A stretch of 64,000 nt of DNA from Candidatus Omnitrophota bacterium (GTDB lineage Bacteria > Omnitrophota > Gorgyraeia > Gygaellales > Profunditerraquicolaceae), in assembly GCA_028716245.1 (NCBI GenBank), contig JAQUQW010000003.1:20638-84637 (forward strand), in the 5' to 3' direction. The notes under the pieces were generated by a model. It saw only the letters and a list, made by a program, of their open reading frames with translations. It was not told the DNA's origin and made no database searches. Position 1 is the stretch's first letter; each line of letters opens with the position of its first letter. The translations under genes were made by a program, and so were the position numbers. Positions 1 to 40,233 of the stretch are shown one piece after another.

Positions 1-774
1 CAGGCTAAATGCTTGTTTTGGCGGAATCCGTGTTATGGTGTTTTTAGGACAATGGTGGATAAAGAATATTCTTTTAAGCGGCGCTGATTCAATCCTAGAA
101 GCAAGATAATCGCTAAATTCACCGTGCCAGGGAGAGCCGTAGATGAAAAATTTACCGTTGAACTTACGTATAATTATACGATCATCATTTAAGACCGTCG
201 CCCTTGAGTGTTTATGCCAGAGTCTGGCGGTGGTGCTTTTGCCTGCCCCGGATTTACCGGCGAAAAGCAAACCCCGGCCACCGACATCTTTTATTCCCAC
301 AGAATGAGTAAAGATACCCTGATTCCTCTGGGCAAAATAATTTATCAAAAGCACCTGAAGAAAATCATAGATTATGTCCGAGGTATTCCAAACCTTGCCT
401 TTATTCTTCTTAGGCAATAGATAAACTTTTACTCTATCAAAAGTTTTATTTACCAGCATAATTTGTTTTTTGTCCTCAAGCGGGCATTTATAGATATAGA
501 TATCGCCTCTTTTAAGCAGGCGCCAGTTCTCGTTTTTATCCTGAAAATGATAGGTAATAAATACCGGTTTTGTATTCAAGACATCGGGAAGTTTATCCGC
601 TATTTCGATATCAATTACAATATCCGGCCTTTGGCTTCCTTTATAGAAGAAATTATCAAACCGTTCAGCAGCTTCCAGCTTCTGTCCTTCCGCGCTAAAC
701 TGCTCTAAAGGGAAACAACTTTGCATCAAGATAACCGTATCCGCGATTTTAAGATTAACCTTGTAGTCTATCAT
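1..774 (-). CDS. HPr kinase/phosphorylase C-domain-like serine kinase (partial; C-terminus lies beyond window start)
   Basis: Own translation of minus strand from ATG 774..772 gives an uninterrupted frame to position 1. It is absent from the ORF track only because it runs off the edge. P-loop ...IKDVGGRGLLFAGKSGAGKSTTARLWH... encoded ~290..215 is typical of the HprK C-terminal domain. Start overlaps stop of upstream rSAM gene (TAATG). Confidence 0.6.
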   Translation of the reverse strand, partial: MIDYKVNLKIADTVILMQSCFPLEQFSAEGQKLEAAERFDNFFYKGSQRPDIVIDIEIADKLPDVLNTKPVFITYHFQDKNENWRLLKRGDIYIYKCPLEDKKQIMLVNKTFDRVKVYLLPKKNKGKVWNTSDIIYDFLQVLLINYFAQRNQGIFTHSVGIKDVGGRGLLFAGKSGAGKSTTARLWHKHSRATVLNDDRIIIRKFNGKFFIYGSPWHGEFSDYLASRIESAPLKRIFFIHHCPKNTITRIPPKQAFSL

Positions 775-1892
775 TATGACACGATGCTCCTTTCAGGATA
801 AATTTTCATTCTTTTGCCGGCCTTTGCTTTTACCATCATCTTTTTTGCTGTTTCTTCTGCCAATTGGCAATAATATAACACTGGCGCTTCTTCGTCACCC
901 GTCTCTAAATACGCCCTTGCCGGGCAATGATAGCAGATTGGCCGCCAAGAGCAATCTTTGCATTTAGAGTCGGTTTTAAAGCGCTCATTTAATATTTGTG
1001 TAGGCCAACGATAAAAACCCTCTTTGAATGGTGTAGTTTTTAAATCTATGCTAAATTGATCTGAAAATATACAAAACTTAAGCCGTCCATAAGGATTAAT
1101 AAAAAATTGCTGCATCCAGGAATTGCAATGATAAAGCAGGCTTCTCTCCTGTTTTAAATCGGGAAAATCGCTATGGAGCCCCTTTTGATATTCTCCCCAG
1201 ATATCCGGGTCTTGTTTTCTTAACTCCACCAGCTCTTCAAAAGAAAGCCGGTGATTACACGGCGCCTTATCGCCATTTACCCGAGGATAAATCATCGGGT
1301 CATATTTAAAACGATACTTATTGTCCGCAGGCTTGCCTAAAAGCTCCTCTGTCCATCTTTTTATCTTGGCAATCTCATTTTTGTTCTGTTTTAGGCAATT
1401 GGATTTTAATATAAGTTTAGTATTGTTCTTTGATAATAACTTAATATTTTTAATTACCCGAAAAAAAGAACCGCTAACTTGGGTAATTGATTCATAGGAT
1501 TCTTGGGTTATGCCATTTAGAGTTATCTCAATGGAAAAAGGAGGATATTTCGCCAAATAATTGACAATTTCTTTGCTCAGGCTGTAACCATTGGTAAAAA
1601 GCGTGATAATAAAACCCTTACTTTTAGCATAGGAATAGATTTCTAAAAAATCACCCCTGACTAAAGGATCTCCGCCGGTAAAAGTAAGCCAAAGACAACC
1701 TTCTTGCTGAAGCGTATCAAGAATTTTCTTCCACTCCTCAGCAGTCAATTCTCTGTCTTCCGAACTTTTGCAATAGCAATGAACGCAGTTTAGATTACAA
1801 CGATAGGTGAATTCAAGCTGGCCGCTCCAGGGATAATGCTCTTTTTTACTATTTAATTTACGAATAAAACGACCGAGGCTATTTTTTTCCAT
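774..1892 (-). CDS. radical SAM / SPASM-domain peptide-modifying enzyme
   Basis: CNLNCVHCYC (CxxxCxxC) near N-terminus; C-terminal Cys-rich SPASM-like region (CNSW...CIF...CKDCSWRPICYHCPARAY...YYC). Confidence 0.8.
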   Translation of the reverse strand: MEKNSLGRFIRKLNSKKEHYPWSGQLEFTYRCNLNCVHCYCKSSEDRELTAEEWKKILDTLQQEGCLWLTFTGGDPLVRGDFLEIYSYAKSKGFIITLFTNGYSLSKEIVNYLAKYPPFSIEITLNGITQESYESITQVSGSFFRVIKNIKLLSKNNTKLILKSNCLKQNKNEIAKIKRWTEELLGKPADNKYRFKYDPMIYPRVNGDKAPCNHRLSFEELVELRKQDPDIWGEYQKGLHSDFPDLKQERSLLYHCNSWMQQFFINPYGRLKFCIFSDQFSIDLKTTPFKEGFYRWPTQILNERFKTDSKCKDCSWRPICYHCPARAYLETGDEEAPVLYYCQLAEETAKKMMVKAKAGKRMKIYPERSIVS

Positions 1893-2074: not shown

Positions 2075-2299
2075 TTATGAAGTGCCTGTCGTGGTTCTAG
2101 TAAAATTAATTAATGGACCTGATCCTGAAGGGAATATGCAGCCCCAAACCGCCCCTTTATTGTGCGAATACCCTTTCAAGGACGGTCCAGCGATTGCGGT
2201 TTGGTACCCCCAACCGTAACAATTACACGACAACACCGCCTGCTCAGGGTTGAGTTTTACCCGCGTAATCACCGGCTTAAATTTAGGTTTTTTGGGCAT
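2075..2299 (-). CDS. RiPP precursor peptide candidate (74 aa)
   Basis: AAGGAG 7 nt upstream of ATG at 2299 (the ORF-track N-terminal extension MLILERRSK contains the SD). Sequence MPKKPKFKPVITRVKLNPEQAVLSCNCYGWGYQTAIAGPSLKGYSHNKGAVWGCIFPSGSGPLINFTRTTTGTS: Lys-rich leader-like N-terminus, Gly/aromatic/Thr-rich C-terminal part with 3 Cys, no Asp, C-terminal Ser. Sits immediately after the PqqD gene. Confidence 0.55.
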   Translation of the reverse strand: MPKKPKFKPVITRVKLNPEQAVLSCNCYGWGYQTAIAGPSLKGYSHNKGAVWGCIFPSGSGPLINFTRTTTGTS

Positions 2300-2327: not shown

Positions 2328-2609
2328 TTATTTTACCGCTTTGATCTCTTTTAAGTCTTTTAATAATTTCTGCATCTCCTTGTCTACTTCTTCGGGCGTG
2401 GTATCAAACTCCTTCAGGAGCTTACTTTTAAGCTCGGTCAGCGTCCTTTTGCCGTCGAGCAATTCCCAAACCCTTGAAGCAACTTTATTTAAAGTATAGA
2501 TACAGTTTATCTCATCTGAGGTCTTATAAATCGGCAGAAGTATGGTCTCATCTTCAATCACCCGAGTTACCATATCGGAATTCTTGCGTAAAACAGTCTT
2601 TTCTTGCAT
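2328..2609 (-). CDS. PqqD-family RiPP recognition element protein
   Basis: 93 aa; ...LNKVASRVWELLDGKRTLTELKSKLLKEFDTTPEEVDKEMQKLL... matches the PqqD consensus. GGAGG 9 nt upstream of ATG 2609. Confidence 0.75.
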   Translation of the reverse strand: MQEKTVLRKNSDMVTRVIEDETILLPIYKTSDEINCIYTLNKVASRVWELLDGKRTLTELKSKLLKEFDTTPEEVDKEMQKLLKDLKEIKAVK

Positions 2610-4020
2610 TGGTTTTACCTCCTCTTGAAAGAATCTTCTCTATCGCCCACATCTTTTTTTCAGTTTTATCCCACTTTTTTATCGACCTATTGTTTTTTAG
2701 TTTTCTTTCTTTCAGAAATGCCGCCTTAAACGCATTATATCTACCGGTAACCAAATCAATTATAGCATGTTTTTCTTTTAACAAAAAGGCAATCTTTAAT
2801 AGGCGCAAAGTCGTTTCCAACGCGTCAAAACCTAAGATCAACGAATTTTTATAAAAAACAGCCGCCTTGGGGAATTTTCTTTGTTTTTCATATATCCGGC
2901 CTAAAAGATAATGGCTTTGCGCGTCTAAACGTTCAAATGATTGATACCTTAACAATAATTTCTTGGCTTTATGAATATTGCCGAGTTTAAATTCCGCGGC
3001 TGCCATTCCCAAGAGGTATTGCTCTTCTAGCTTATTAAACAATCCTTGATTGCCCTGCTTTAAAGCCAAGGAAAAATATGTTTTTGCTTTTTTAAAATTA
3101 TTTCTTTGCAGGAAAATTTGGCCCAAACCCAGAAAGCAAGCGGGGTTTTTGGGATCAACTTTCAATATTTTTGAAAATTCTTTTCTCGCTAAAGAAAACT
3201 TCCCCAGAGATAAGTAAAGCGGCCCATAATTATTATCTGAAACCCTGTAAGCGGGATCACAGGCGATTGCTTTTTCGTAGTATTCTTTTCTTCCCGTGGA
3301 CCTAAAAAGATTAAAATTCTCGGCTGCCGCTAAAGCGGCCCGGAAACGGTTTCTAAATTCTCCGGGAGAAAAATTATAGGCGAGCTCATCACCTAAATGC
3401 TTATACTCCATTGGTGTATAACCGCCGTTTACCGAATAGGCGATAGTGATTATTTGCGGCTGTCGTATCTTTCCCTTAAGCGTTTCTACCAAATGAGCTG
3501 GCGTAATCCAAGGTTTTCTTTTGCCTATATCGACTGTATTGTTTGCATTCACAAGGCTATCTATAACTAAAAAATCAGTATCGATATCAAGCAAAACCTT
3601 CTGCTTAAAAATAGGCAGATTTTTTAAGGTGCAGACAATAAATCTCCTGCCAGAAAGCCTGTTTGATAATTTTCTTTGCATGCACAGAGCGGCTTGCGGT
3701 ATACTGCCAGCTCCCGGCACCACCCAGTAAAAATCCCTGACAATGCCCTCCTGCATTGCCGGATAAATATAATTGCCGATATTTGCCTGCTTATCCAAAT
3801 CATTTTCATACTGTTGATAAGCTAAACTATGCTCTAAATCGCTTTTTAATTCCTTCAAAGTTTTTGCATCCCGAATTATATTATCTATCGGTTTTGCCTG
3901 ATAAAACCCAAAATCAATATGGGCGTCAATATGCACCAAATCAAGGTTTTTAAAACCCTTCTGCCGCCAAATGGTTAGCGCTGCATCATGGTCTTCGATA
4001 AGGAACACGCCTTTACTCAT
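2554..4020 (-). CDS. arginase/deacetylase-fold (UPF0489-like) metallohydrolase domain fused to C-terminal TPR repeats
   Basis: N-terminal motifs in arginase-family order: EDHDAALTI, VHIDAHIDF, LLDIDTDFLVID. C-terminal half has repeated TPR-like helices (AIACDPAY...YLSLGKF...LGQIFLQRNNFKKAKTYF...). Confidence 0.45.
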   Translation of the reverse strand: MSKGVFLIEDHDAALTIWRQKGFKNLDLVHIDAHIDFGFYQAKPIDNIIRDAKTLKELKSDLEHSLAYQQYENDLDKQANIGNYIYPAMQEGIVRDFYWVVPGAGSIPQAALCMQRKLSNRLSGRRFIVCTLKNLPIFKQKVLLDIDTDFLVIDSLVNANNTVDIGKRKPWITPAHLVETLKGKIRQPQIITIAYSVNGGYTPMEYKHLGDELAYNFSPGEFRNRFRAALAAAENFNLFRSTGRKEYYEKAIACDPAYRVSDNNYGPLYLSLGKFSLARKEFSKILKVDPKNPACFLGLGQIFLQRNNFKKAKTYFSLALKQGNQGLFNKLEEQYLLGMAAAEFKLGNIHKAKKLLLRYQSFERLDAQSHYLLGRIYEKQRKFPKAAVFYKNSLILGFDALETTLRLLKIAFLLKEKHAIIDLVTGRYNAFKAAFLKERKLKNNRSIKKWDKTEKKMWAIEKILSRGGKTNARKDCFTQEFRYGNSGD

Positions 4021-4415
4021 CTTTTGCGAAGTTTCATATAAACAGGTTTTAAAGACTTAATAATCAAAGGGACAATGACCACCATAAAGCTATTGATCAA
4101 CCTATTTCTCCAAATTGTAAGATTGATCATCCTATTATTTTTTATAATACCAACCACTTTACCGATAAACATTTCTCGGGTTATCGGTTCCGGCGCAGAC
4201 AGAGAATTGTCTCCCCGCGTATAGAGAAAATCCTTATTTTTCCTTACTAGCCGATGACAAATCAATTGGTTATTTACCCGGTATAAAATAATATCCCCGG
4301 CTCTTAAATCATCTGCCGGGAATTTTTTAATCACCAGTTTTTCTTTCGGCCGGATAAACGGCCACATACTAAACCCGGAGGTTTCAAAAAATAATAGATC
4401 TTCGGAATTATTCAC
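4017..4415 (-). CDS. S26-family signal peptidase I-like serine protease (SipW/archaeal type)
   Basis: GFSMWPFI (Ser), GDIILY, HRLV (His), TRGDNS box; C-terminal hydrophobic helix. Confidence 0.6.
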   Translation of the reverse strand: MNNSEDLLFFETSGFSMWPFIRPKEKLVIKKFPADDLRAGDIILYRVNNQLICHRLVRKNKDFLYTRGDNSLSAPEPITREMFIGKVVGIIKNNRMINLTIWRNRLINSFMVVIVPLIIKSLKPVYMKLRKR

Positions 4416-5325
4416 GGATCCCTTTCGGCGCGGGAAAATTCAACGCGTCGCAAACTTTACAAATCTCTGAACAGCTTCGGGATCCTTTTGCTAGCGATCG
4501 CCTGGCGCTTTTAAAAAAATCTGAAAACCAGATGTCCTTAAGAGTTGAATCTTTGGCATCCCCCATAACTACCTTCCACAATCCATCCGCGCAGCATAAA
4601 GGCACAGTCCCATCATAACCAATAACTATTTCGGTTAACGGCCTCAGGCATTGGATCTTTAGCGGATTTTTTAAAAAAACTCCCGCGTTTGGGCTTTGGC
4701 CGGCACGATTGCCGAAGTAATCGGTTTTAGCCCTATAATTAATTATAACTTCGCCACCCAAAACAGCTGAATTATTTAGCAGTTTCCTTATGGAGGGATT
4801 CAATTTGTGCTGATCATTATAATTATTTATGATAATCCTATTTAAACCGGATTCGAATAGTTCATTCACTAAATTCGCGTTAATCAAAATGCCGTTAGTA
4901 TACAGATAAAAAAAATTGTTTTTCAATAGGCCCCTGGCAATTCTTATCCGAGAGGATAAACGCGCATCCAAAAGCGGTTCGTTATTGCAATGAAAGGCAA
5001 TGCTTCCAATAAAAGATAAATTTGCCAATTCATTAAGTATCTTTAGGTATAAACTCTCGAGCATAAGGTTTTTGGGATTTTTTGCTCCAGCTTTTGCCGA
5101 CGCCGGGCAAAAAGCGCAATCATTATTACAATAAGAAACGGTCTCAATAAATACTTTATCAAACAACTTATTTTTATCCGCAGGCACCCGGAAGTTATTT
5201 TTAATAACAATTTCTTTTAATTTGAGATAATTCTTTTGCATAAAATTGCTGCGGCGCAGGAATCTCCTAACCTTTGATCTTATGCCGTAAACATATTTAT
5301 TCTTATTCCTTATTTTAATTGTCAT
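4408..5325 (-). CDS. radical SAM / SPASM-domain enzyme (second)
   Basis: CNNDCAFCPAS rSAM motif; C-terminal CCADGLW...CSEICKVCD auxiliary-cluster motif. Confidence 0.8.
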   Translation of the reverse strand: MTIKIRNKNKYVYGIRSKVRRFLRRSNFMQKNYLKLKEIVIKNNFRVPADKNKLFDKVFIETVSYCNNDCAFCPASAKAGAKNPKNLMLESLYLKILNELANLSFIGSIAFHCNNEPLLDARLSSRIRIARGLLKNNFFYLYTNGILINANLVNELFESGLNRIIINNYNDQHKLNPSIRKLLNNSAVLGGEVIINYRAKTDYFGNRAGQSPNAGVFLKNPLKIQCLRPLTEIVIGYDGTVPLCCADGLWKVVMGDAKDSTLKDIWFSDFFKSARRSLAKGSRSCSEICKVCDALNFPAPKGIRE

Positions 5326-5355
5326 ATTAATCTTCTATTTAAGCTGTATCTCTTA

Positions 5356-5364
5356 TGTTATAAT
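5356..5364 (+). promoter_or_regulatory. extended -10 promoter element TGT-TATAAT, 6 nt before ATG 5371 (possible leaderless transcript)
   Basis: Sequence atgTTATAATttgaatATG; no SD between -10 and start. Confidence 0.3.
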
Positions 5365-6513
5365 TTGAATATGAACGAAAGGAAAATACCCAGTGAACAT
5401 AAATTAATCTTGCTTTGTACAAGATTAAAGATAAACGAACCTAACCGGAATGAAATCTTGGGCCTTCTAAATGGGCCGCTTAACTGGAATAGAATAAGAG
5501 AATTCTCCGTCCGGCAAGAAATCCTGCCTTTTCTGTATTATAACTTAAACAGGCTGAATCTTCAAGATTCCATCCCTCAGGAGATGTTCGCAATAATGAA
5601 AAACTACCATTATTCTAACCTTGTTAGAAACTCAATGTTAGAAAAAGAGGCTGCGCTTATTCTGAAATCGGCCAATTCCGCGGGCATAACCATTATGCCT
5701 TTCAAAGGCTTTAGCTTAATACAAACAATATACCAGAGCAATCCTGAGCTAAGGATAATGGTTGATGTCGATATACTTGTAAAAGAAACTGAATTTCCGA
5801 AAATAAAAAATATTCTTACCCAAACAGGCTATATAGAAAATACGGATACTATTGGCAATAAAATCGCTTTCGAAAACGTCTTCTCAAAAAAGCTTTCCGC
5901 GAGTTTTTCGTCAATTATAGAGATCCACACCGAGCTTTCTCCTGCCCGCCCTTACCCGCTCAAACTCCCGCAACTTTGGGAAAGAACCCGGGAAATAAAC
6001 ATTAATAGCCAGAAAATATCGCTTTTATCCGCGGAAGACACATTTTTATCCTTAGCCCTGCATTTACGCAGGCATCTGCGGAGGCTAACTTTAAAATTTA
6101 TAGTCGATATTTCTGAATTGTTAAGCGCGAGCGGCGAAAACCTTGATTGGAAATATATAAAGAAATCGGCCCAAGATAGCCATATGATAACAACCGTTTA
6201 TCTTTCTCTTTATATCACGAAAGAACTGCTGGATATGCCTGTTGCCGGCAAAATCTTAAATGAATTCCGGCCAAATATCATTAAAAACGCCCTGATAAGT
6301 TTATCGATAAACAAACATAATTTTTTTACTTTTAAAAAATGGCAAGCCACGTTTTTGCGGTTTTTACTTTTTGACCGCCTTTTAGACTTCTTCCTTTATC
6401 TCTGGCGGGTATCTTTTGTCGAAAGATTTATCGGCAGACGGGCCCGCAAAAAGACTAAAACAAACGCTATACCGAGAATACCGATAAGAAATATTGTGGA
6501 AACCAGGAAGTAA
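5365..6513 (+). CDS. PF14907-like putative nucleotidyltransferase (RiPP-cluster-associated)
   Basis: ORF track starts at TTG 5365; first ATG at 5371. ...FKGFSLIQTIYQSNPELRIMVDVDILVKETEFPKIKNILTQTGY... resembles the G-x-A...R-x-DxDxLV core of the uncharacterised nucleotidyltransferase family found next to PqqD/HprK genes in lasso-type clusters. Confidence 0.55.
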   Translation: MNMNERKIPSEHKLILLCTRLKINEPNRNEILGLLNGPLNWNRIREFSVRQEILPFLYYNLNRLNLQDSIPQEMFAIMKNYHYSNLVRNSMLEKEAALILKSANSAGITIMPFKGFSLIQTIYQSNPELRIMVDVDILVKETEFPKIKNILTQTGYIENTDTIGNKIAFENVFSKKLSASFSSIIEIHTELSPARPYPLKLPQLWERTREININSQKISLLSAEDTFLSLALHLRRHLRRLTLKFIVDISELLSASGENLDWKYIKKSAQDSHMITTVYLSLYITKELLDMPVAGKILNEFRPNIIKNALISLSINKHNFFTFKKWQATFLRFLLFDRLLDFFLYLWRVSFVERFIGRRARKKTKTNAIPRIPIRNIVETRK

Positions 6514-7439
6514 AAAAGCGCTTTGGCTATAATAATATCTGATTTTAAGCTTTTACTAAATCTATCCACGTAATGAACAAACCTATCTTCTCCGCCAAAT
6601 AGATAACTCGTCCCTATTCTGATGCCATTGGGAAGCTTATCAATGTAGCTTTGGAATACAGAAAAAAATCCATATCTGGTATTATACTTATCGATAAAAT
6701 CGTTTCCTGTGCGCAAAAATACGCATTTTAAAAGCTTCGAGTAAGAAACCGGCATTGCATTGTGTTCCTCTGCCCCACTTCCTATTCTCTGAATCAAAAT
6801 ATTTCCGGTTCGATCATCCAGCAGCCTTTCTCTTAATTCTAAAAAGGAAAGCGGGTTGCCCCGCTCGGTAGCGTAAAAACCAAACGTTGTATCTACAAAT
6901 ACCCATTTTTTTAAGCTTTTAATATAAACTTCGTTCACCGAGTGAGCCAGCGGCTTAAACTTCTCGCTTTCTAAAGCCCATAATCTTGATTTTAAGCCTA
7001 AACCGGATAAATACGCGGAGAATAAAATCGAGCGGTGAAAACAATTCGCGCCCCGGGCTCCCTCTCTTATCTGCCTGAGCATGCCATCGGGAGAATCCCA
7101 TTTTAAAACTCGGCCCGTACGGTTATTATTCGAAAATATATTCATTACATATTTTGCGGCTTCAAGCATAGCTTCAAAGTCATCGTTTTTGTTCCTGATT
7201 AAAGGCCGGATCTCATTTTTAAAAATATCGAGCCCGGGCTTATCCGGTTCGAGATGAAAATATCCCGGGGCCTTATCCGGCTGCCAGTAAAAATCATCCG
7301 GGTTAACGGACTCAATAATATCCCAGACAGCCAAATGTGAAAACGCGCGGCTTTTGAATAACGAATAACCAATAACCCCGTCGATTAAAATAATTATAAA
7401 AACAGCTAGGTAAATATTTCTTTTAATTATTCTTTTCAT
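6396..7439 (-). CDS. membrane-anchored transglutaminase-like cysteine protease
   Basis: N-terminal TM helix; GANCFHRSILFSAYLSGLGLKSR (Cys), HSVNEVYI (His), WVFVDTT (Asp) as in the transglutaminase-core / lasso B2 protease superfamily. Confidence 0.55.
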   Translation of the reverse strand: MKRIIKRNIYLAVFIIILIDGVIGYSLFKSRAFSHLAVWDIIESVNPDDFYWQPDKAPGYFHLEPDKPGLDIFKNEIRPLIRNKNDDFEAMLEAAKYVMNIFSNNNRTGRVLKWDSPDGMLRQIREGARGANCFHRSILFSAYLSGLGLKSRLWALESEKFKPLAHSVNEVYIKSLKKWVFVDTTFGFYATERGNPLSFLELRERLLDDRTGNILIQRIGSGAEEHNAMPVSYSKLLKCVFLRTGNDFIDKYNTRYGFFSVFQSYIDKLPNGIRIGTSYLFGGEDRFVHYVDRFSKSLKSDIIIAKALFYFLVSTIFLIGILGIAFVLVFLRARLPINLSTKDTRQR

Positions 7440-8169
7440 ATCCGCTTAATTTACACCTAAGAATATGGTGAATAAAAATCAGATTCCCCAATAAGTATCT
7501 CTTCCACAACCTTTTCGGCTGCTGCCACAATCTGTGCAGCCATTCAAGCCCAAATTTAATCATCCAGTTCGGCGCTCTTTTTCGTTGGCCGGACAACCAA
7601 TCAAACACGGCGCCTACAGCCCAATATAAATTAACATTTAACGCACCTATATTATTAGCTATCCATTTTTCTTGTTTCGGAACCCCCATCCCAACCATTA
7701 ATATATTTGGCTTTAAACTGTTAATTTCTTGAATGATTTTCTGCTCTTCGGATTTAGCAAAAAAACCCTCCCGGCTGCCTACAATTCTTAATCCTTTGGC
7801 CTTCAATGCTTCTGCTGTCTTTTTAACGGTTCCCTCCCGGCCTCCCAATAAATAAATGGTTATCTTTCGATCTTTCAGTTCGGAAACTAACCTATCAAAA
7901 AAATCCAATATGTTTACCCTTTCCGGCAAAGGGTTACCTAAAAATCTCGCGGCCCAGACCACGCCCTGGCCTCCGGTGTAAACCAAGTCTGCTTTTTGCA
8001 GAATTTTTTTATATTCATTATCGATTAAGGCGGTATTTACACAGTGCGCGTTAAGATAGGTTATAAATTTAGCCTTATCCGTAAGGGCGTATTCCAGAAT
8101 TTTCCCTATGATATCATCGGCAGCCAGCGCCCCAACCTCTATGCCTAAAAAATTAATAGTTTTATGCAT
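7423..8169 (-). CDS. WecB/TagA/CpsF-family glycosyltransferase
   Basis: 248 aa; conserved ...VYTGGQGVVWAARFLG...ERV.G.DF...GVPKQEKW...DWLSGQRKRAPNWMIKFGLEWLHRLWQQPKRLWKRY matches the family throughout. Confidence 0.75.
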   Translation of the reverse strand: MHKTINFLGIEVGALAADDIIGKILEYALTDKAKFITYLNAHCVNTALIDNEYKKILQKADLVYTGGQGVVWAARFLGNPLPERVNILDFFDRLVSELKDRKITIYLLGGREGTVKKTAEALKAKGLRIVGSREGFFAKSEEQKIIQEINSLKPNILMVGMGVPKQEKWIANNIGALNVNLYWAVGAVFDWLSGQRKRAPNWMIKFGLEWLHRLWQQPKRLWKRYLLGNLIFIHHILRCKLSGYEKNN

Positions 8170-8186: not shown

Positions 8187-9920
8187 TTACTGATTATGAA
8201 AAAAATCCCGGTAAGCCTGGCTTTCGGATAAAAGCTGGTCATGGACGCCTGCTTCTATTTTTCCATCCCCTCTTAAAAAATATATCCTATCCGCGTCTTT
8301 TATCGAAAACAGCCGGTGAGAAATAACTAGGGTACTTAAACCCTGCCTCTTTTGCCTCAAAGCCTTGAATAGCCGCTCTTCGGTAAAAGAATCCACGGAA
8401 GAAGTGGCTTCATCAAGAATAAGCAAATGGGGATTTTTTAATATCGCCCGGGCGATAGAAATCCGCTGTTTAAGCCCTTGTGAGAGGCGGCAGGCATCCT
8501 CGCCGATCAAAGTATGATAACCCTGAGGCAATTGACTGATAAAATCGTGAACACAGGCAATTTTGGCCGCCTCGATTATCAATTCTTCTTTAATATTTTT
8601 AAAACCATACCTTATATTTTCTTTTATGGAAACATCAAATAAAAACGGCTGTTGAGTAGCGACAGCTATTCTTTCTCTTAAGGATTTTAATTCTATTTCT
8701 CTCAAGTCCAAACCATCCAAGCATATCCGGCCCGCGTCAGGATCGTATAACCGCAGGATCAGATTAATCAGCGTGGTTTTGCCGCATCCCGAAGGTCCGA
8801 CTATCCCGGTCCATGAACAAGCAGGGATCTTAAAATTAAGCTCATTGATAACGGGTTTTCCATTATACCCAAAACGCACATCTTTAAACAGAATTTCTCC
8901 TTTTATGGCGGGTAATGTTTTTGCTTCTGGCGCGCTTTTTATCAAAGGCCGGGTATTCATAATCTCAAAGAAGTTATTCAGGGAGACCGCTTCCTGCGTA
9001 AGAAAAGCGAAATTGTTGCTCAGAGACCCCAGTAACCCTCCTAACTGAGTAAGATACAGCATAACCGCGGTATAGCTGCCCAGCGTCATTCTTCCTTTAA
9101 TTATCAACCACCCGCCATAAAGAGTGATTGCCCCGTAGATCGCCTTGGTTAAAAAAGACGAACTCAAAGAATTGATTGTGGTCCAGCGAAAACTTTTTAT
9201 CCTCCAGCGGATATTCTCAATCCAAGATCTTAAATAACTCCGCCTTTGATATGACTCCAAGCCGAATGCCTTAATAATCAAAACCCTGGAAAAAGCTTCA
9301 TAAACCTTTTTGGAAACTAAAGCGCTGTATTTCCAGAGCTCTTGATAAATGGGCCTGAGTTTTTTCTGCAGGTAGACACTATGCAGGATAAAGAGAGGGC
9401 TTAGAATAAGCAAAAACACAGTCATCCGGGCATTAATCCAAAACGAAATCCCCAGAATAATGAATAACTTGAAAATATCCACCAAGAGGCGCGGGAACTG
9501 TTCGAGGATAAAGTTGGCAACGTTCTCTACATCGGAAAGCCTGTAAACATTTTCGCCTACGGATTGGGATTGAAAAAAACTTAAATCCAGGGAATAGAAT
9601 TTTCTGATAAACCGGCCGGCTAAATCGAGCTTTAACTTTATGGCTATTTTGTTTTTTATGATATCTTCGGCGGCCTTAACCGATATAGTGAATATGAATA
9701 TCGCCGCTCCCACAATAGACAGGTTCAGGAATTTGTCAAAGTTTCTGGCGATAAACGCCTTGTCGATAAACAACTTGGAAAGATACGGCGTGATCAGCGC
9801 GAGGCTGGAAGAAAAAAGACCCAATAAAAATAATACGAGGATCCGTTTCCGGTAAAAAAATATAAATTTTGCTAGGAGTTGATTATTGCGGAAAAGCTTA
9901 AATCTATTTAAAAATTCCAT
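8187..9920 (-). CDS. ABC exporter, fused permease + ATPase (type I exporter)
   Basis: Six predicted TM helices then Walker A GPSGCGKTT, signature LSQGLKQRISIARA, Walker B LILDEATSSVD. ORF track start is GTG 9935; first ATG at 9920. Confidence 0.85.
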   Translation of the reverse strand: MEFLNRFKLFRNNQLLAKFIFFYRKRILVLFLLGLFSSSLALITPYLSKLFIDKAFIARNFDKFLNLSIVGAAIFIFTISVKAAEDIIKNKIAIKLKLDLAGRFIRKFYSLDLSFFQSQSVGENVYRLSDVENVANFILEQFPRLLVDIFKLFIILGISFWINARMTVFLLILSPLFILHSVYLQKKLRPIYQELWKYSALVSKKVYEAFSRVLIIKAFGLESYQRRSYLRSWIENIRWRIKSFRWTTINSLSSSFLTKAIYGAITLYGGWLIIKGRMTLGSYTAVMLYLTQLGGLLGSLSNNFAFLTQEAVSLNNFFEIMNTRPLIKSAPEAKTLPAIKGEILFKDVRFGYNGKPVINELNFKIPACSWTGIVGPSGCGKTTLINLILRLYDPDAGRICLDGLDLREIELKSLRERIAVATQQPFLFDVSIKENIRYGFKNIKEELIIEAAKIACVHDFISQLPQGYHTLIGEDACRLSQGLKQRISIARAILKNPHLLILDEATSSVDSFTEERLFKALRQKRQGLSTLVISHRLFSIKDADRIYFLRGDGKIEAGVHDQLLSESQAYRDFFHNQ

Positions 9921-9926
9921 ATTTTT

Positions 9927-9932
9927 ATTATA
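9927..9932 (-). promoter_or_regulatory. TATAAT hexamer 6 nt upstream of ABC-exporter ATG (inside the atpC/ABC junction)
   Basis: Minus strand: ...TAA GATGTG TATAAT AAAAAT ATG GAA...; same TATAAT-N6-ATG geometry as at 5359. Confidence 0.25.
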
Positions 9933-9938
9933 CACATC

Positions 9939-10190
9939 TTACTTAAGAAGAATCGTGGCTTTGTTCTGCAGGACCTCAAGATACCCGGTTTGTTTTGTTT
10001 CTATAGCCTTGGTTAGGCCGGTGCTATCCTTAAAAGTAATTACCCCGGGTTTGAGCTTGGCAATCACCGGGGCATGAAACGCTAAAATGCCAAGATAACC
10101 TGATTCCGAAGGAGCCACCAGAGAAACCGCCTCTCCTTCATATATTGTCTTATCGCTGGAATAAATACCGATCTGAAAAATATTAGCCAT
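9939..10190 (-). CDS. atpC: ATP synthase F1 epsilon subunit (short form, N-terminal beta-sandwich only)
   Basis: 83 aa, position after atpD; ...HAPVIAKLKPGVITFKD... typical epsilon N-domain; no C-terminal helical hairpin. Confidence 0.7.
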   Translation of the reverse strand: MANIFQIGIYSSDKTIYEGEAVSLVAPSESGYLGILAFHAPVIAKLKPGVITFKDSTGLTKAIETKQTGYLEVLQNKATILLK

Positions 10191-10193
10191 ATC

Positions 10194-12453
<2,260 letters not shown>

Positions 12454-12459
12454 AATTTT

Positions 12460-13983
12460 TTAAGGTTTAATCAAAAATTCTTTTTTAAAATCAGCAATTA
12501 AATTATCCAACTTGTTTTTCAGGTTTAAATCCAATTCATTCTTTGAAGTAATCTCCGCTTGAATTTCCGGATATTTCTGCTCGATAAATTTATAAAGCTG
12601 GCTCTCAAACCTCTTAACCGCGACAAGAGGCAGGTCATCCAAATACCCGTTGGTGCCGGCGTAAATAATAATTATCTGTTTTGCTGTTGCCAAAGGCTCA
12701 TACTGCACTTGCTTTAATACCTCCACCATCCTTTCGCCGCGGGTTAGCTGAGCGCGCGTAGTTTTATCCAGATCCGTGCCGAATTGCGTAAAGGTTACCA
12801 GTTCCCGGTACTGCGCAAGATCCAACCGGAGTTTTGAAGCCACCTGGCGCATCGCCTTGCTCTGTGCCTTGCCTCCCACGCGGGAAACCGATAATCCCAC
12901 ATTTACCGCGGGCCGCACACCGGCATAAAATAGATCGCTTTCCAGATAGATCTGTCCGTCAGTAATCGAAATTACGTTGGTGGGGATATAACTTGAAATA
13001 TCTCCGGCCTGAGTTTCAATAATTGGAATCGCCGTTATTGAGCCTGCCCCCAGTTGATCGTTTAATTTTGCGGCTCGCTCAAGCAGCCGCGAATGTAAAT
13101 AGAAGATATCGCCCGGATAAGCTTCTCTTCCCGGAGGCCTCCTTAAAAGTAAAGATAACTGCCGGTAAGCCTGGGCGTGTTTGGATAAGTCATCGTAAAT
13201 TACCAGGACGTGCTTTCCGGCATACATAAATTCTTCGGCCATAGCGGTGGCCGCGTAAGGAGCAAGATACTGCAGGCTTGCCGAAGCCCGGCTGGAAGCG
13301 CTGACAATCGTAGTGTAATCCATTGCCCCGTGTTTTTTAAGTACTTCACTTACCGCCACCACACTGGATAACTTTTGGCCGATCGCGCAATAAATACAAT
13401 AAACATCCTTGCCTTTTTGATTAATAATCGTATCGATGGCAATGGCGGTTTTTCCGGTTTGGCGGTCTCCGATAATCAACTCGCGCTGGCCACGGCCGAT
13501 AGGGGTCATCGTATCAATAGCCTTTATCCCGGTCTGCAATGGTTCTTTTACCGGCTGCCTCTGGACCACATTAGGGGCAGAGGATTCCAGCGGCCGCGCC
13601 GATTGCGTATTGACCTGGCCTTTACCGTCGATTGGCCGGCCTAAGGCATTGACTACCCTGCCAACCAAAGCTTCACCTACAGGAACCTGCACAATCTTAC
13701 CTGTACGTTTGACAATATCCCCTTCGCGGATATTTTTATCCGGGTTGTCCGTGCCAAAAATTACTACCCCGACGCTATCCTCCTCCAAGTTTAAAACCAT
13801 CCCCATGATATTATCGGAAAACTGGACCAATTCTCCCATCATTACATCATCCAAACCGTAAATACGCGCGATGGTATCCCCCACCTGGATAACTGTGCCG
13901 ATAGACTCGGTACGCAGGCGCGTCTTATATTTTTCTAACTCCTTCTTAATTATTGAAGTAACCTCTTCCGGTTTTAAAACCAT
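12460..13983 (-). CDS. atpA: ATP synthase F1 alpha subunit
   Basis: 507 aa; [10 protein letters not shown]-loop; AtpA-like throughout. Confidence 0.95.
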
Positions 13984-13984
13984 A

Positions 13985-14533
13985 TCAATCCATCCTTACT
14001 GTAGTAAGCCTCTCTCTTAGGCCCTCGAGGCGTTTTTTTACCGAACCGTCAATAATAGTATTACCGATAATTATCTGGACTCCTCCTAACAAACTGCCGT
14101 CTAAATTTATATAAAATCTTAGGTCCTGTTTAAATTTTTTCTTTAAAGCCGCCTCTATTCTTCTAATCAGATCCAGATCCAACGGGAAAGCAGTCTTAAG
14201 CAGCACATCAACCTGCCCTTGATGGCTGTATTTTGCACGTAAGTACTCGGCAACATCCAAGAAGATATTGAAACGTTTTTTTTCAAGAAGGAGCTTTAAT
14301 AAATTACGCATCTCATCAGCAACACCGTCCTTGATTACTCCATCGATAATCAGGCACTTCTCAAGGTAAGAGATCTCCGGATTATCCAGCAACTGGCCAA
14401 ACCCCGGATTATCGCGGATAATATTCTTTACAATTACCAGATCCTCCAGGGCTTTATCTGTTCCGCAATTGGCCTTAGCAAAACTTAAGAAAGCTTCGGC
14501 ATACCTGCTGACCACTGCTTTATCTTTGATCAT
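13985..14533 (-). CDS. atpH: ATP synthase delta (OSCP) subunit
   Basis: 182 aa, operon position, OSCP-like. Confidence 0.8.
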
Positions 14534-15027
14534 TCCACTTTCTCAATTTCTTTAATAAAATTTTCCACTATTTTGCGGTCACCGTCTTCAGTGAGCCTCT
14601 CCTGGATTACGCTTTTAGCAGCGCCCAGGGCAATATCCACAATCTTATCCTTGAGCTGTTCCTGAACCTTAGAGACCTCGTATTTTACCTGATTGCGCGC
14701 ATCGGTAATAATGTCCTGCGCCTCCTCATAAGCCTTCTTGCGCATTTGGGAATTTATCTCCTTACCTTCTTCAATGGCCTCCTTAATCTTTGCCTGCGCT
14801 TGATCGGCAATTAAAGAAATCTTAGCCTCATAATCAGACTTAAGCTTGGCAATCTCAAGCTTAGAATTCTCTATCTCACCAAGCTCAGAGCTAATTTTTT
14901 CCCTGCGCTGGTCCAGGAGACCAAGGATTTTCTTCCAGGCAAAATGCTTGAGCAGAAATAACAGCAGAAAAAAACTTAAAATTTGGGCAAAAATCTCATT
15001 TGCGCTGAGCATCTTCAATAATTCCAC
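14530..15027 (-). CDS. atpF: ATP synthase Fo b subunit
   Basis: 165 aa, N-terminal TM then long charged coiled coil. Confidence 0.75.
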   Translation of the reverse strand: MELLKMLSANEIFAQILSFFLLLFLLKHFAWKKILGLLDQRREKISSELGEIENSKLEIAKLKSDYEAKISLIADQAQAKIKEAIEEGKEINSQMRKKAYEEAQDIITDARNQVKYEVSKVQEQLKDKIVDIALGAAKSVIQERLTEDGDRKIVENFIKEIEKVE

Positions 15028-15045
15028 CTGACTATTCCTTTCCGA

Positions 15046-15273
15046 TTATTTTCCGGCGTACATAAAAGCAAAAACCAAGACATAAATGGTAATTGCTTCG
15101 ATAAAAGCGCAACCGATAATCATATTCATCATGATCTTATTGGTTGCCTCCGGCTGCCTACCGATCGCCCCCAATGCCGCAGCTACCGCTATACCTAAAC
15201 CGAGCGCTGAACCTAATGCTGCTAAGCCCAGCGACAAAGGAACGCCTAAATCTAAAGCTGCTTTAAAATCCAT
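15046..15273 (-). CDS. atpE: ATP synthase Fo c subunit
   Basis: 75 aa hairpin proteolipid, conserved Glu (AFIEAITIY). Confidence 0.85.
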   Translation of the reverse strand: MDFKAALDLGVPLSLGLAALGSALGLGIAVAAALGAIGRQPEATNKIMMNMIIGCAFIEAITIYVLVFAFMYAGK

Positions 15274-15288
15274 TTCATCCTCCTTTTA

Positions 15289-16041
15289 TTATACAGTTTC
15301 TTCTTCGTGAATTAATACCAGTGCAAAATATATTGTCGTTAACAAAGTAAAAACTACTGCCTGAACAATTGCGGTTAATACCGCCATCGACATATTAAAA
15401 AATAAAATCGGAAATCCTTTAATGCCAAAACCGGAAAGCAAACCGATTAAAACCTCATCCCCCCAAATATTTCCCCGCAGACGCAGAGATAAGCTTAACG
15501 GGCGAATAAGCTCGGTAATAATGTGCAAAAAAAACATAAATAACGGCAAAATAACCGTAAAGGCCAATACGCCCCGCGGCTTGCCGGCCAAGTGGTCCAC
15601 ATACCCTAGAAAGCCCATCTCTTTTACCGCGGTATATTGCACATAAAAAAATACGCACAGTGACAAGGCCAGCGTCGTGGACCAGCTGGCGGTGGAGGCT
15701 TTTACAAACGGAATAAGCCCGGAAAGATTCATAAAAAGTATATAAACAAAGAGTGTGCCGATAAAAGGAGTATATTTTCTGCCCTTAGGCCCCAGGATCC
15801 CGCAAATAAAATCATTCAGCCCTCCCACAACCACCTCAGCGCAGTTTTGAAGGCGTCCGGGAATCAAATTATTCTTTCTGGAAGCAAAATAAGCCAGGAT
15901 ACCCAACACCAAAACAATAACCAGGGAATAACTGACATGCTCCCAGAGATGAATAAATTTAAATAACGGATTTGCCGGAAACTTCTCGGCTAATACGGCA
16001 AAAATATCCGGCAGCTCTGGGGCGGCGATATTCTGGCTCAT
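15289..16041 (-). CDS. atpB: ATP synthase Fo a subunit
   Basis: 250 aa polytopic; conserved Arg region LSLSLRLRGNIWGDE. Confidence 0.85.
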   Translation of the reverse strand: MSQNIAAPELPDIFAVLAEKFPANPLFKFIHLWEHVSYSLVIVLVLGILAYFASRKNNLIPGRLQNCAEVVVGGLNDFICGILGPKGRKYTPFIGTLFVYILFMNLSGLIPFVKASTASWSTTLALSLCVFFYVQYTAVKEMGFLGYVDHLAGKPRGVLAFTVILPLFMFFLHIITELIRPLSLSLRLRGNIWGDEVLIGLLSGFGIKGFPILFFNMSMAVLTAIVQAVVFTLLTTIYFALVLIHEEETV

Positions 16042-40029: not shown

Positions 40030-40067
40030 ATAAAAAACCAGAGAACGCTTTCCCTGGCATGTTCTCT
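40030..40067 (-). terminator. leader terminator hairpin (AGAGAAC-N14-GUUCUCU + U6) immediately upstream of ATPase start; overlaps alternative antiterminator
   Basis: Plus-strand 40040..40046 / 40061..40067 inverted repeat; U-run from 40039..40030 on minus strand; 3' arm AGCGUUCUC is also exactly complementary to codons 3-5 (GAGAACGCU). Confidence 0.4.
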
Positions 40068-40233
40068 CAAAATTGGCTTACGAGGTTAGCTGTCGGGCTC
40101 GGGTCGAGTAACCCTAATCTGATATTTCCAGATATTGGCCCCAAGATCATTTTAGTCGATCGGATTCTTGGATTCCCCGCTATCTTTTTAGATTCACATA
40201 CAAGTCTAAAAAAAGATTAAGCTTATTAAAATA

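Follow-up and report, generated by a model that had tools for sequence, protein, structure and literature searches.

A peptide-arginase-like protein with a fused TPR domain and a PqqD-type partner in an LPP-related RiPP gene cluster of an Omnitrophota genome

Peptide arginases, which convert Arg into ornithine within peptides that are ribosomally synthesised and post-translationally modified (RiPPs), are wanted as tools to install ornithine in designed peptides; to our knowledge they form a young family with few characterised members, all of them single-domain proteins. Every characterised enzyme of the Pfam family PF12640 (UPF0489) is a peptide arginase, namely OspR, FlmR, OhkR, BipC and PbsE (PMC10028609, PMC12703449, PMC12707348). 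OspR, from landornamide biosynthesis (structure 8BRP), has 309 aa in a single domain, forms homodimers and modifies Arg within cores that vary in sequence. Six Mn ligands are known from its crystal structure, Glu11 is proposed to stabilise the guanidinium group, and the leader is presumed to bind in a cleft formed by an extra dimerisation domain (Ser170-Ser234) (PMC10028609). FlmR and OhkR (NCBIfam NF052474) as well as BipC and PbsE carry the motifs EEHxE, DxHxD and DIDLD. In a second described system, the linear polyphosphorylated peptide (LPP) clusters known from Bacillota (Popov et al. 2026, PMC13381572), a signal-peptidase-I (SpI)-like peptidase cuts off the leader presented by a RiPP recognition element (RRE), and an HprK-like kinase polyphosphorylates a core Ser. 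Relatives of both systems stand side by side in the stretch analysed here, 64,000 nucleotides of a Candidatus Omnitrophota bacterium (GCA_028716245.1, contig JAQUQW010000003.1, positions 20,638 to 84,637; hereafter the window), where a gene at 2554..4020 (minus strand) encodes a fusion of a UPF0489 domain with a tetratricopeptide repeat (TPR) domain.

This protein is peptide-arginase-like, TPR-fused and RRE-partnered, and lies inside an uncharacterised LPP-related RiPP family; the enzyme type is already known, but neither the TPR-fused form nor the peptide family that goes with it has been studied. The protein probably acts as a peptidyl-Arg-to-ornithine hydrolase recruited through RRE and TPR, and it is most likely an optional tailoring enzyme of its RiPP pathway. 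It is possible, though more tentative, that UPF0489-TPR proteins represent a new architectural class of peptide arginase, in which recruitment by TPR and PqqD RRE takes the place of the OspR-type dimer cleft, and which would serve as a plug-in module giving ornithine peptides in a large uncharacterised RiPP family of Omnitrophota, Elusimicrobia, Nitrospirae and other uncultured phyla, a hybrid of radical S-adenosylmethionine (rSAM) cross-linking and LPP-type phosphorylation. The target gene and its parts are as follows.

2554..4020, minus strand: UPF0489(PF12640)-TPR fusion protein, 488 aa, ATG start (open reading frame (ORF) call; Pfam and NCBIfam matches; 378 homologues)
3316..4020, minus strand: N-terminal domain of predicted arginase fold, residues 1-235 (PF12640; OspR profile match; AlphaFold2 and Foldseek)
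3988..3996, minus strand: motif 1, E9-D10-H11 (H11 aligned with OspR His12, D10 with OspR Glu11)
3913..3927, minus strand: motif 2, D32-A-H34-I-D36, of type DXHXD (aligned with OspR Asp39/His41/Asp43; invariant)
3574..3588, minus strand: motif 3, D145-I-D147-T-D149 (D147 and D149 aligned with OspR Asp165/Asp167; invariant)
2623..3315, minus strand: C-terminal all-helical TPR domain, residues ~236-466 (Pfam TPR models, AlphaFold2 helices, Foldseek TPR matches, invariant columns)

The initial annotation had read an ORF with motifs in arginase/deacetylase order, and this ORF is real: translation of 3988-3996, 3913-3927 and 3574-3588 gives EDH, DAHID and DIDTD, within EDHDAALTI (residues 9-17), HIDAHID (30-36) and DIDTDFLVID (145-154). 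It had also named UPF0489 as a family to be checked. PF12640 (UPF0489 / FlmR_OhkR_N) matches residues 5-109 over profile positions 1-90 of 167 with 34.0 bits (E = 4.8e-8), above the gathering threshold of 27 bits, and membership is thereby borne out. The best NCBIfam match of the N-terminal domain (N-domain) was the peptide arginase family FlmR/OhkR (NF052474), with 44.9 bits over residues 5-100 only, and the curated cutoff of 350 bits was not reached. By these sequence scores, the N-domain is a distant member of the PF12640 peptide-arginase superfamily, outside the FlmR/OhkR family.

Among solved structures, OspR was the only significant homologue by both profile and fold. With residues 1-232 as phmmer query, the best and only significant match among all Protein Data Bank (PDB) sequences was OspR (8BRP), in three collinear segments, and a profile built from 28 family N-domains, which takes in members just 35-45% identical to the window protein, matched OspR 8BRP alone (E = 1.1e-10). 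As the full-length model retrieved only TPR proteins in Foldseek, the N-domain was modelled separately. The AlphaFold2 model of residues 1-235 (pLDDT 83, pTM 0.78) has strands alternating with helices and the ligands at strand C-termini, and 8brp_B was its sole PDB match below 1e-3 (E = 5.9e-6, probability 1.0, TMq 0.49). For the arginase fold, a structure prediction had been proposed as the check, and the predicted model matches a peptide arginase alone; no classical arginase or deacetylase chain was found among the PDB sequence or fold matches of the N-domain.

The profile alignment placed all six binuclear-Mn ligand positions in register with OspR (H11 with His12; D32/H34/D36 with Asp39/His41/Asp43; D147/D149 with Asp165/Asp167), in agreement with the motifs proposed from the sequence. 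S196 aligns with OspR Ser264, NIGNYIYPA with IANFIYPA, and the YS..GGxTP segment is in register too. What the protein has in common with OspR is a predicted alpha/beta/alpha core of three layers, six predicted Mn ligands that match in kind and order, the Ser264 equivalent, and segments of the conserved types (I/N)xNxIYPA and GxTP. All six ligand positions were invariant in 28-30-sequence alignments with homologues down to ~35% identity, where E9 was likewise invariant and position 10 varied between D, N and E. In a 47-sequence alignment D32, H34, D36, D147 and D149 were invariant and H11 was at least 90% conserved, and S196 was invariant in all three family alignments (28 to 47 sequences). This conservation of ligands and Ser196 argues for a working active site and against a pseudoenzyme. 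Compared with the OspR motifs EEH(N/H)EAF, DXHXD and LDIDLDYFSC, DAHID fits, whereas EDHDAAL and LDIDTDFLV fit only at the ligand and flanking positions. On profile alignment and structural model taken together, the N-domain is predicted to have an arginase fold of the OspR type, and all six residues of the putative binuclear-metal site are present.

Such a six-ligand binuclear site is a ureohydrolase signature, unlike the single-Zn D-H-D site of deacetylases (PMC10028609, together with knowledge of the clan). Neither the classical arginase family PF00491 nor any histone-deacetylase-type deacetylase family was among the Pfam matches at E <= 0.1. The deacylase function that had been offered as an alternative finds no support in these two results, the ligands being of the two-metal arginase type and no deacetylase family being matched.

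The C-terminal half, read as TPR from the outset, matches several Pfam TPR models on residues ~246-400 (E from 1e-13 to 1e-7); helices of this region span residues 219-466 in the AlphaFold2 model, and Foldseek gives TPR matches. The motif YRxxDNNYG is invariant in the TPR domain in the family alignment. A low-confidence C-terminal tail, residues 467-488 (window 2557-2622, minus strand), ends in ..CFTQEFRYGNSGD and overlaps the start of the PqqD gene; it recurs in the family members P0013 and P0108 as SFTQExGYGxxGx.

The family is large. The 90%-clustered database contained 378 homologues of the target, many of them full length (46-86% identity), labelled 'UPF0489 family protein' or 'TPR repeat protein' in metagenome-assembled genomes of Omnitrophota and Aminicenantaceae, and PF12640 was precomputed for nearly all of the 378. 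When the N-domain was searched against 1.84 billion 50%-identity representatives, 612 proteins passed E <= 1e-3, and 97 of these reached E <= 1e-30. Among the best 150 matches nearly all were 400-550 aa long, the length of the fused architecture, and a few reached 700-1010 aa. A word-indexed search with the N-domain returned family members only, and no canonical arginases. Most family members carry a ~38-residue variable insertion between N-domain strands 3 and 4 (alignment columns 128-165), which is absent from the window protein (residues ~104-120) and from its closest relative, P0002.

The initial annotation had placed the gene in a RiPP cluster, and the conserved synteny of related loci with RRE, precursors and rSAM enzymes, as well as natural fusions to PqqD and to B12-dependent rSAM (B12-rSAM) domains, support that setting. 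The genes around the target in the window are given below.

1..774, minus strand: HprK-like (ScmC-like) P-loop kinase, cut by the left window edge (tblastn, 57% identity to the kinase of related locus L016, E = 8e-100)
774..1892, minus strand: rSAM/SPASM-type maturase (PF04055, E = 1e-22), conserved partner
2075..2299, minus strand: precursor peptide, 74 aa (leader hidden Markov model (HMM), E = 7.6e-21; AGGAG Shine-Dalgarno sequence upstream of ATG)
2328..2609, minus strand: PqqD-family RRE (PF05402, E = 1.8e-13)
4017..4415, minus strand: S24 / archaeal-type SpI-like peptidase (PF00717 and TIGR02228)
4408..5325, minus strand: second rSAM/SPASM protein, lineage-specific (SPASM and Radical_SAM matches)
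5365..6513, plus strand: NTP_transf_5 nucleotidyltransferase (PF14907, E = 2.7e-46), conserved partner
8187..9935, minus strand: MsbA-like ATP-binding cassette (ABC) exporter (ABC_membrane and ABC_tran matches), conserved partner

The target is translationally coupled to the upstream S24/SpI-like leader peptidase gene, whose stop codon overlaps its start codon (ATGA), and its 3' end overlaps the start of the PqqD gene. Related loci numbered 44, 42 from one-per-species genomes and two obtained by exact look-up; their hosts were mostly Omnitrophota, with Elusimicrobia, Nitrospirae, Methylomirabilota, Saganbacteria, Gottesmanbacteria and Aminicenantaceae also represented. Homologues of the rSAM/SPASM protein at 774..1892 occurred in 38 of these loci at a median distance of 357 bp, and homologues of PqqD in 34, mostly adjacent to or overlapping the target. 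The leader HMM detected precursors in 33 loci (one to three copies each). S24/SpI-like peptidases were present in 29, typically directly upstream of the target, HprK-like P-loop kinases also in 29, NTP_transf_5 in 23 and the ABC exporter in 21. The recurrent order was NTP_transf_5 - S24 - UPF0489-TPR - PqqD - precursor(s) - rSAM(s) - HprK-like - rSAM - ABC, with which the minus-strand order in the window agrees, and its segment S24 - UPF0489-TPR - PqqD - precursor recurs in several phyla.

In some loci these neighbours are covalently joined. Single ORFs encode UPF0489-TPR-PqqD (L038, 6290-8218), B12-rSAM-UPF0489-TPR-PqqD (L037, 8714-11458) and B12-rSAM-UPF0489-TPR (L040, 8417-11386), and a further rSAM fusion with UPF0489-TPR is found in L106 (14948-17674); PqqD is fused to the target homologue in L037, L038 and L044. 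The fusion ORFs of L037, L038, L040 and L106 look like multi-enzyme RiPP maturases of Elusimicrobia and Nitrospirae. An arginase working alongside a B12-rSAM enzyme has a precedent in biphenomycin biosynthesis, and the BipC and PbsE pathways use a B12-rSAM enzyme, in parallel to these fusions (PMC12707348).

The window precursor consists of a leader, MPKKPKFKPVITRVKLNPEQAVL, and a 51-aa core that contains three Cys and a single Arg (R68) and ends in Ser. A leader-seeded metagenome scan yielded 293 precursor relatives, from which 80 loci were kept. The leader consensus of the precursors is (K/R)xKFKPxITRVKLNPEQAVL, and distant sub-families keep YxxPx[IV], the element recognised by lasso and LPP RREs. 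The cores are hypervariable, 30-64 residues long, Ser/Gly/Thr-rich and with at least three Cys, and 104 of 114 unique precursor cores end in Ser. No NCBIfam or Pfam model matches the precursor family, and the window precursor with its relatives looks like an undescribed RiPP precursor family. Orphan precursor genes were also seen (L070, L085, L077, L065 and L112), with the cluster enzymes absent within 10 kb.

Two Arg of the window precursor, R13 and R68, had been put forward as possible substrates. Both are present, but only R68 remains a candidate. R13 lies in the leader and was rejected as substrate: the position is R in 67 of 68 precursors where the gene was undetected, and varies between R, K, Q, V, A and I where the gene is present. 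As R13 is equally conserved in the absence of the arginase-like gene, it would serve leader recognition and not arginase action. R68, the only core Arg of the window precursor, is therefore the candidate modification site.

The arginase-like gene is optional, since clusters of the same architecture lack it (L083, L078 and L103); L083, for instance, has the order S24-PqqD-precursor-rSAM-rSAM-HprK-rSAM-ABC-NTP5. Together with L059 and L053, which share the architecture and also lack the UPF0489-TPR gene, these loci use Lys instead of Arg in their cores. The composition of cores with and without the gene was compared on unique cores with at least three Cys, gene-less loci being counted only where at least 2.5 kb of sequence lay on either side of the precursor. 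Arg made up 5.9% of core residues in loci with the gene (46 cores) and 2.0% in gene-less loci (14 cores, 11 loci), as against 2.3% and 3.8% for Lys, so that R/(R+K) was 0.72 with the gene and 0.34 without it. The mean number of Arg per core was 2.8 and 0.9, respectively; 45 of the 46 unique cores from loci with the gene contained Arg (1 of 46 did not), compared with 5 of 14 Arg-free cores in gene-less loci. One-sided Mann-Whitney tests gave p = 1e-5 per core, p = 5e-5 per locus, and p = 0.004 with the gene-less loci collapsed to 6 lineages. Gene-less loci had a higher mean GC content (0.54, compared to 0.43 with the gene) and a more Arg-rich background (R/(R+K) in long ORFs of 0.77, compared to 0.51); the difference in core Arg therefore opposes the composition bias. 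The count of 35 of 36 cores containing Arg was rejected as stand-alone evidence: with 6.4% Arg and a length of ~47 residues, composition alone would leave ~1.6 cores free of Arg, and only the comparison of loci with and without the gene is informative. Arg-rich cores with the gene and Lys-using cores without it are rare in-silico evidence on substrate identity and a directly testable prediction; if the relation is true, enzymatic ornithine and encoded lysine would be interchangeable solutions for one role in these peptides.

The pathway may be pictured as follows. The PqqD RRE would hold the precursor leader (KFKPxITRVKLNPEQAVL), and the TPR domain, possibly replacing the OspR dimerisation domain in substrate recruitment, would offer a docking surface to the RRE-leader complex or to the extended core. 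Two Mn2+ ions would activate water for hydrolysis of the guanidinium group of a core Arg, at R68 in the window precursor, to ornithine and urea (-42 Da). The rSAM/SPASM enzymes would cross-link Cys residues, the HprK-like kinase and NTP_transf_5 would phosphorylate and decorate Ser, the S24 peptidase would remove the leader, and the ABC transporter would export the product. Hundreds of sequence clusters with a built-in TPR domain, an obligate RRE partner and sometimes a fused rSAM domain would amount to a different route of substrate recruitment.

Several observations weigh against assigning peptidyl-Arg hydrolysis to this protein. The characterised arginases are distant relatives (16% identical in the fold alignment; 44.9 bits where NF052474 has its cutoff at 350), and the Pfam and NCBIfam HMMs cover only the first ~100 target residues. 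The equivalent of OspR Glu11 is Asp10 in the target and D, N or E across the family, and the OspR dimerisation domain has no counterpart: motif 3 and the YS strand are separated by ~36 residues in the target and ~92 in OspR, of which residues ~200-244 are unmatched in the profile alignment. The p values of the Arg/Lys comparison ignore kinship, being free of phylogenetic correction, 6 of the 11 loci without the gene stem from a single metagenome, and the gene may sit elsewhere in the genomes of the gene-less loci. One core from a locus with the gene (L027) is without Arg. Among the unique cores, there is no position-conserved Arg and no flanking motif around Arg, so R68 of the window precursor is the only individual site that can be singled out; the scattered Arg would fit, by analogy, a promiscuous enzyme like OspR. 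Finally, the homologue in L008 (9992-11641) lies beside GT4 and WecA-type glycosyltransferases, and RiPP genes are absent nearby.

Some of these observations would suit an arginase-fold metallohydrolase acting in the same RiPP pathway with other chemistry, on an amidine, formimino or acyl C-N bond of an rSAM-modified residue or as a deacylase, a reading that we consider unlikely. The great distance from characterised peptide arginases and the variable Glu11-equivalent position speak for it, and the ureohydrolase superfamily includes agmatinases, formiminoglutamases and proclavaminate amidinohydrolases (PMC10028609). Moreover, the RiPP arginases KgrD and Ps_BipC need a pre-modified substrate (PMC12703449, PMC12707348), and the B12-rSAM fusions would suit a coupled two-step reaction. 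Yet peptidyl-Arg is what all characterised PF12640 members hydrolyse, six ligands in a binuclear site are the signature of guanidine and formimino hydrolases and not the single-Zn site of deacetylases, no deacetylase or classical arginase family was matched in Pfam at E <= 0.1, and it is Arg specifically that co-varies with gene presence.

The surroundings of L008, where RiPP genes are out of reach, raise the question whether the substrate could be a non-peptide compound of an envelope or glycan locus (such as a polyamine, or a sugar in guanidino or acetylated form), with the RiPP linkage mere neighbourhood. WecG/TagA and transglutaminase-like genes flank the window cluster, PMT_2 and glycosyltransferase (GT) genes are interspersed in L001, and LPP clusters, which are related, typically lie within polysaccharide loci (PMC13381572). 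This is nevertheless very unlikely given the start/stop overlaps with the S24 and PqqD genes, the S24-gene-PqqD-precursor order across phyla, the covalent fusions to PqqD and rSAM domains and the core Arg that tracks the gene, and the WecG and transglutaminase-like genes each occur in just 1 of 44 loci. A non-catalytic role, in which the TPR and a degenerate arginase-like domain assemble leader peptidase, RRE and rSAM enzymes on the precursor, would agree with the classical use of TPR domains as scaffolds, with the position of the gene, translationally coupled, between the peptidase and RRE genes, and with a pathway that works without the gene in some lineages. It is hardly credible with five of six metal ligands invariant, H11 nearly so, and Ser196 invariant in 28-47 sequences with members at least 35% identical. 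Peptidyl-Arg-to-ornithine hydrolysis thus remains the probable activity.

Even so, the protein departs from each described enzyme in architecture or context. Like OspR, it would mature RiPPs at Arg residues of variable cores, but the two are ~16% identical, the target has ~250 aa of TPR domain added at its C terminus, its partner and in some cases fused module is a PqqD RRE, the EEH of OspR is EDH in the target, and the OspR precursor is of the NHLP/proteusin type, unlike that of the target. No TPR fusion has been described for FlmR/OhkR or BipC/PbsE, whose precursors also differ, with DD(I/V)LF and FRF cores. KgrD of the enteropeptin pathway is, likewise, an arginase within a radical-SAM-modified RiPP pathway (PMC12703449), but it is a classical PF00491 arginase, a family that the target does not match.

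At the cluster level, the window holds all five LPP core genes: the SpI-like peptidase (4017-4415), a discrete RRE (2328-2609), the HprK-like kinase (1-774), the NTP transferase (5365-6513) and the MsbA-like exporter (8187-9935). Further features in common with LPP clusters are hypervariable cores behind a conserved leader, between one and three precursors in a cluster, and glycan genes nearby. LPP clusters differ in being described without radical SAM enzymes, PF12640 or a TPR protein (PMC13381572), and the terms radical SAM, arginase, TPR and Omnitrophota are all absent from that paper. The leaders differ as well (YxxPxVLxHQxIxFETxxS in LPP, KFKPxITRVKLNPEQAVLxC here), so that the leader here is not of the LPP type, as do the cores, which here have at least three Cys and almost always a terminal Ser, and the host phyla. 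Since the five non-rSAM partners correspond to the LPP core set, the window cluster is read as a so far undescribed relative of the LPP clusters, to which rSAM/SPASM enzymes and the arginase-like gene are added. The five-gene LPP machinery known from Bacillota would thereby have a much wider, rSAM-containing relative in uncultured phyla.

The kinase at 1-774, which has weak ScmC, HprK-related and Hpr_kinase_C matches, ties the cluster to Ser phosphorylation of the LPP and paeninodin types. Paeninodin and pseudomycoidin clusters carry the same tailoring pair of HprK kinase and PsmN nucleotidyltransferase, in which the C-terminal Ser receives a phosphate from the kinase and this phosphate is then glycosylated by the nucleotidyltransferase (PMC6993621). 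Unlike in those clusters, the lasso cyclase and B2 protease are absent from the window cluster, a difference bearing on the cluster context and not on the arginase-like gene. A literature search on SynChlorMet/ScmC and on Omnitrophota RiPPs found nothing relevant.

Other genes near the target were not conserved. The second rSAM protein (4408..5325) was found in 2 of the 44 related loci, and the transglutaminase-like and WecG genes in 1 each; as each is present in just 1-2 loci, all three were rejected as pathway-defining partners. The order WecG/TagA - transglutaminase-like - second rSAM/SPASM - S24 is the same in the window (4408-8169) and in 'Candidatus Gygaella obscura' (L022, 1001-4093), and almost no other locus has this module. 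The NTP_transf_5 gene (5365-6513, plus strand) and the transglutaminase-like gene (6396-7439, minus strand) converge with an overlap of 118 bases (6396-6513). Promoter and terminator scans found sites no more numerous than in shuffled sequence. Directly past the ABC exporter lies, to judge by ORF translations, an F-type ATP synthase operon with its full gene set (epsilon, beta, gamma, alpha, delta, b, c, a; 9939-16041, minus strand), and further along the window a c-di-AMP riboswitch (RF00379) was found at 40059-40233 (minus strand) as a full-length match, scoring 72 bits where the gathering score is 38.

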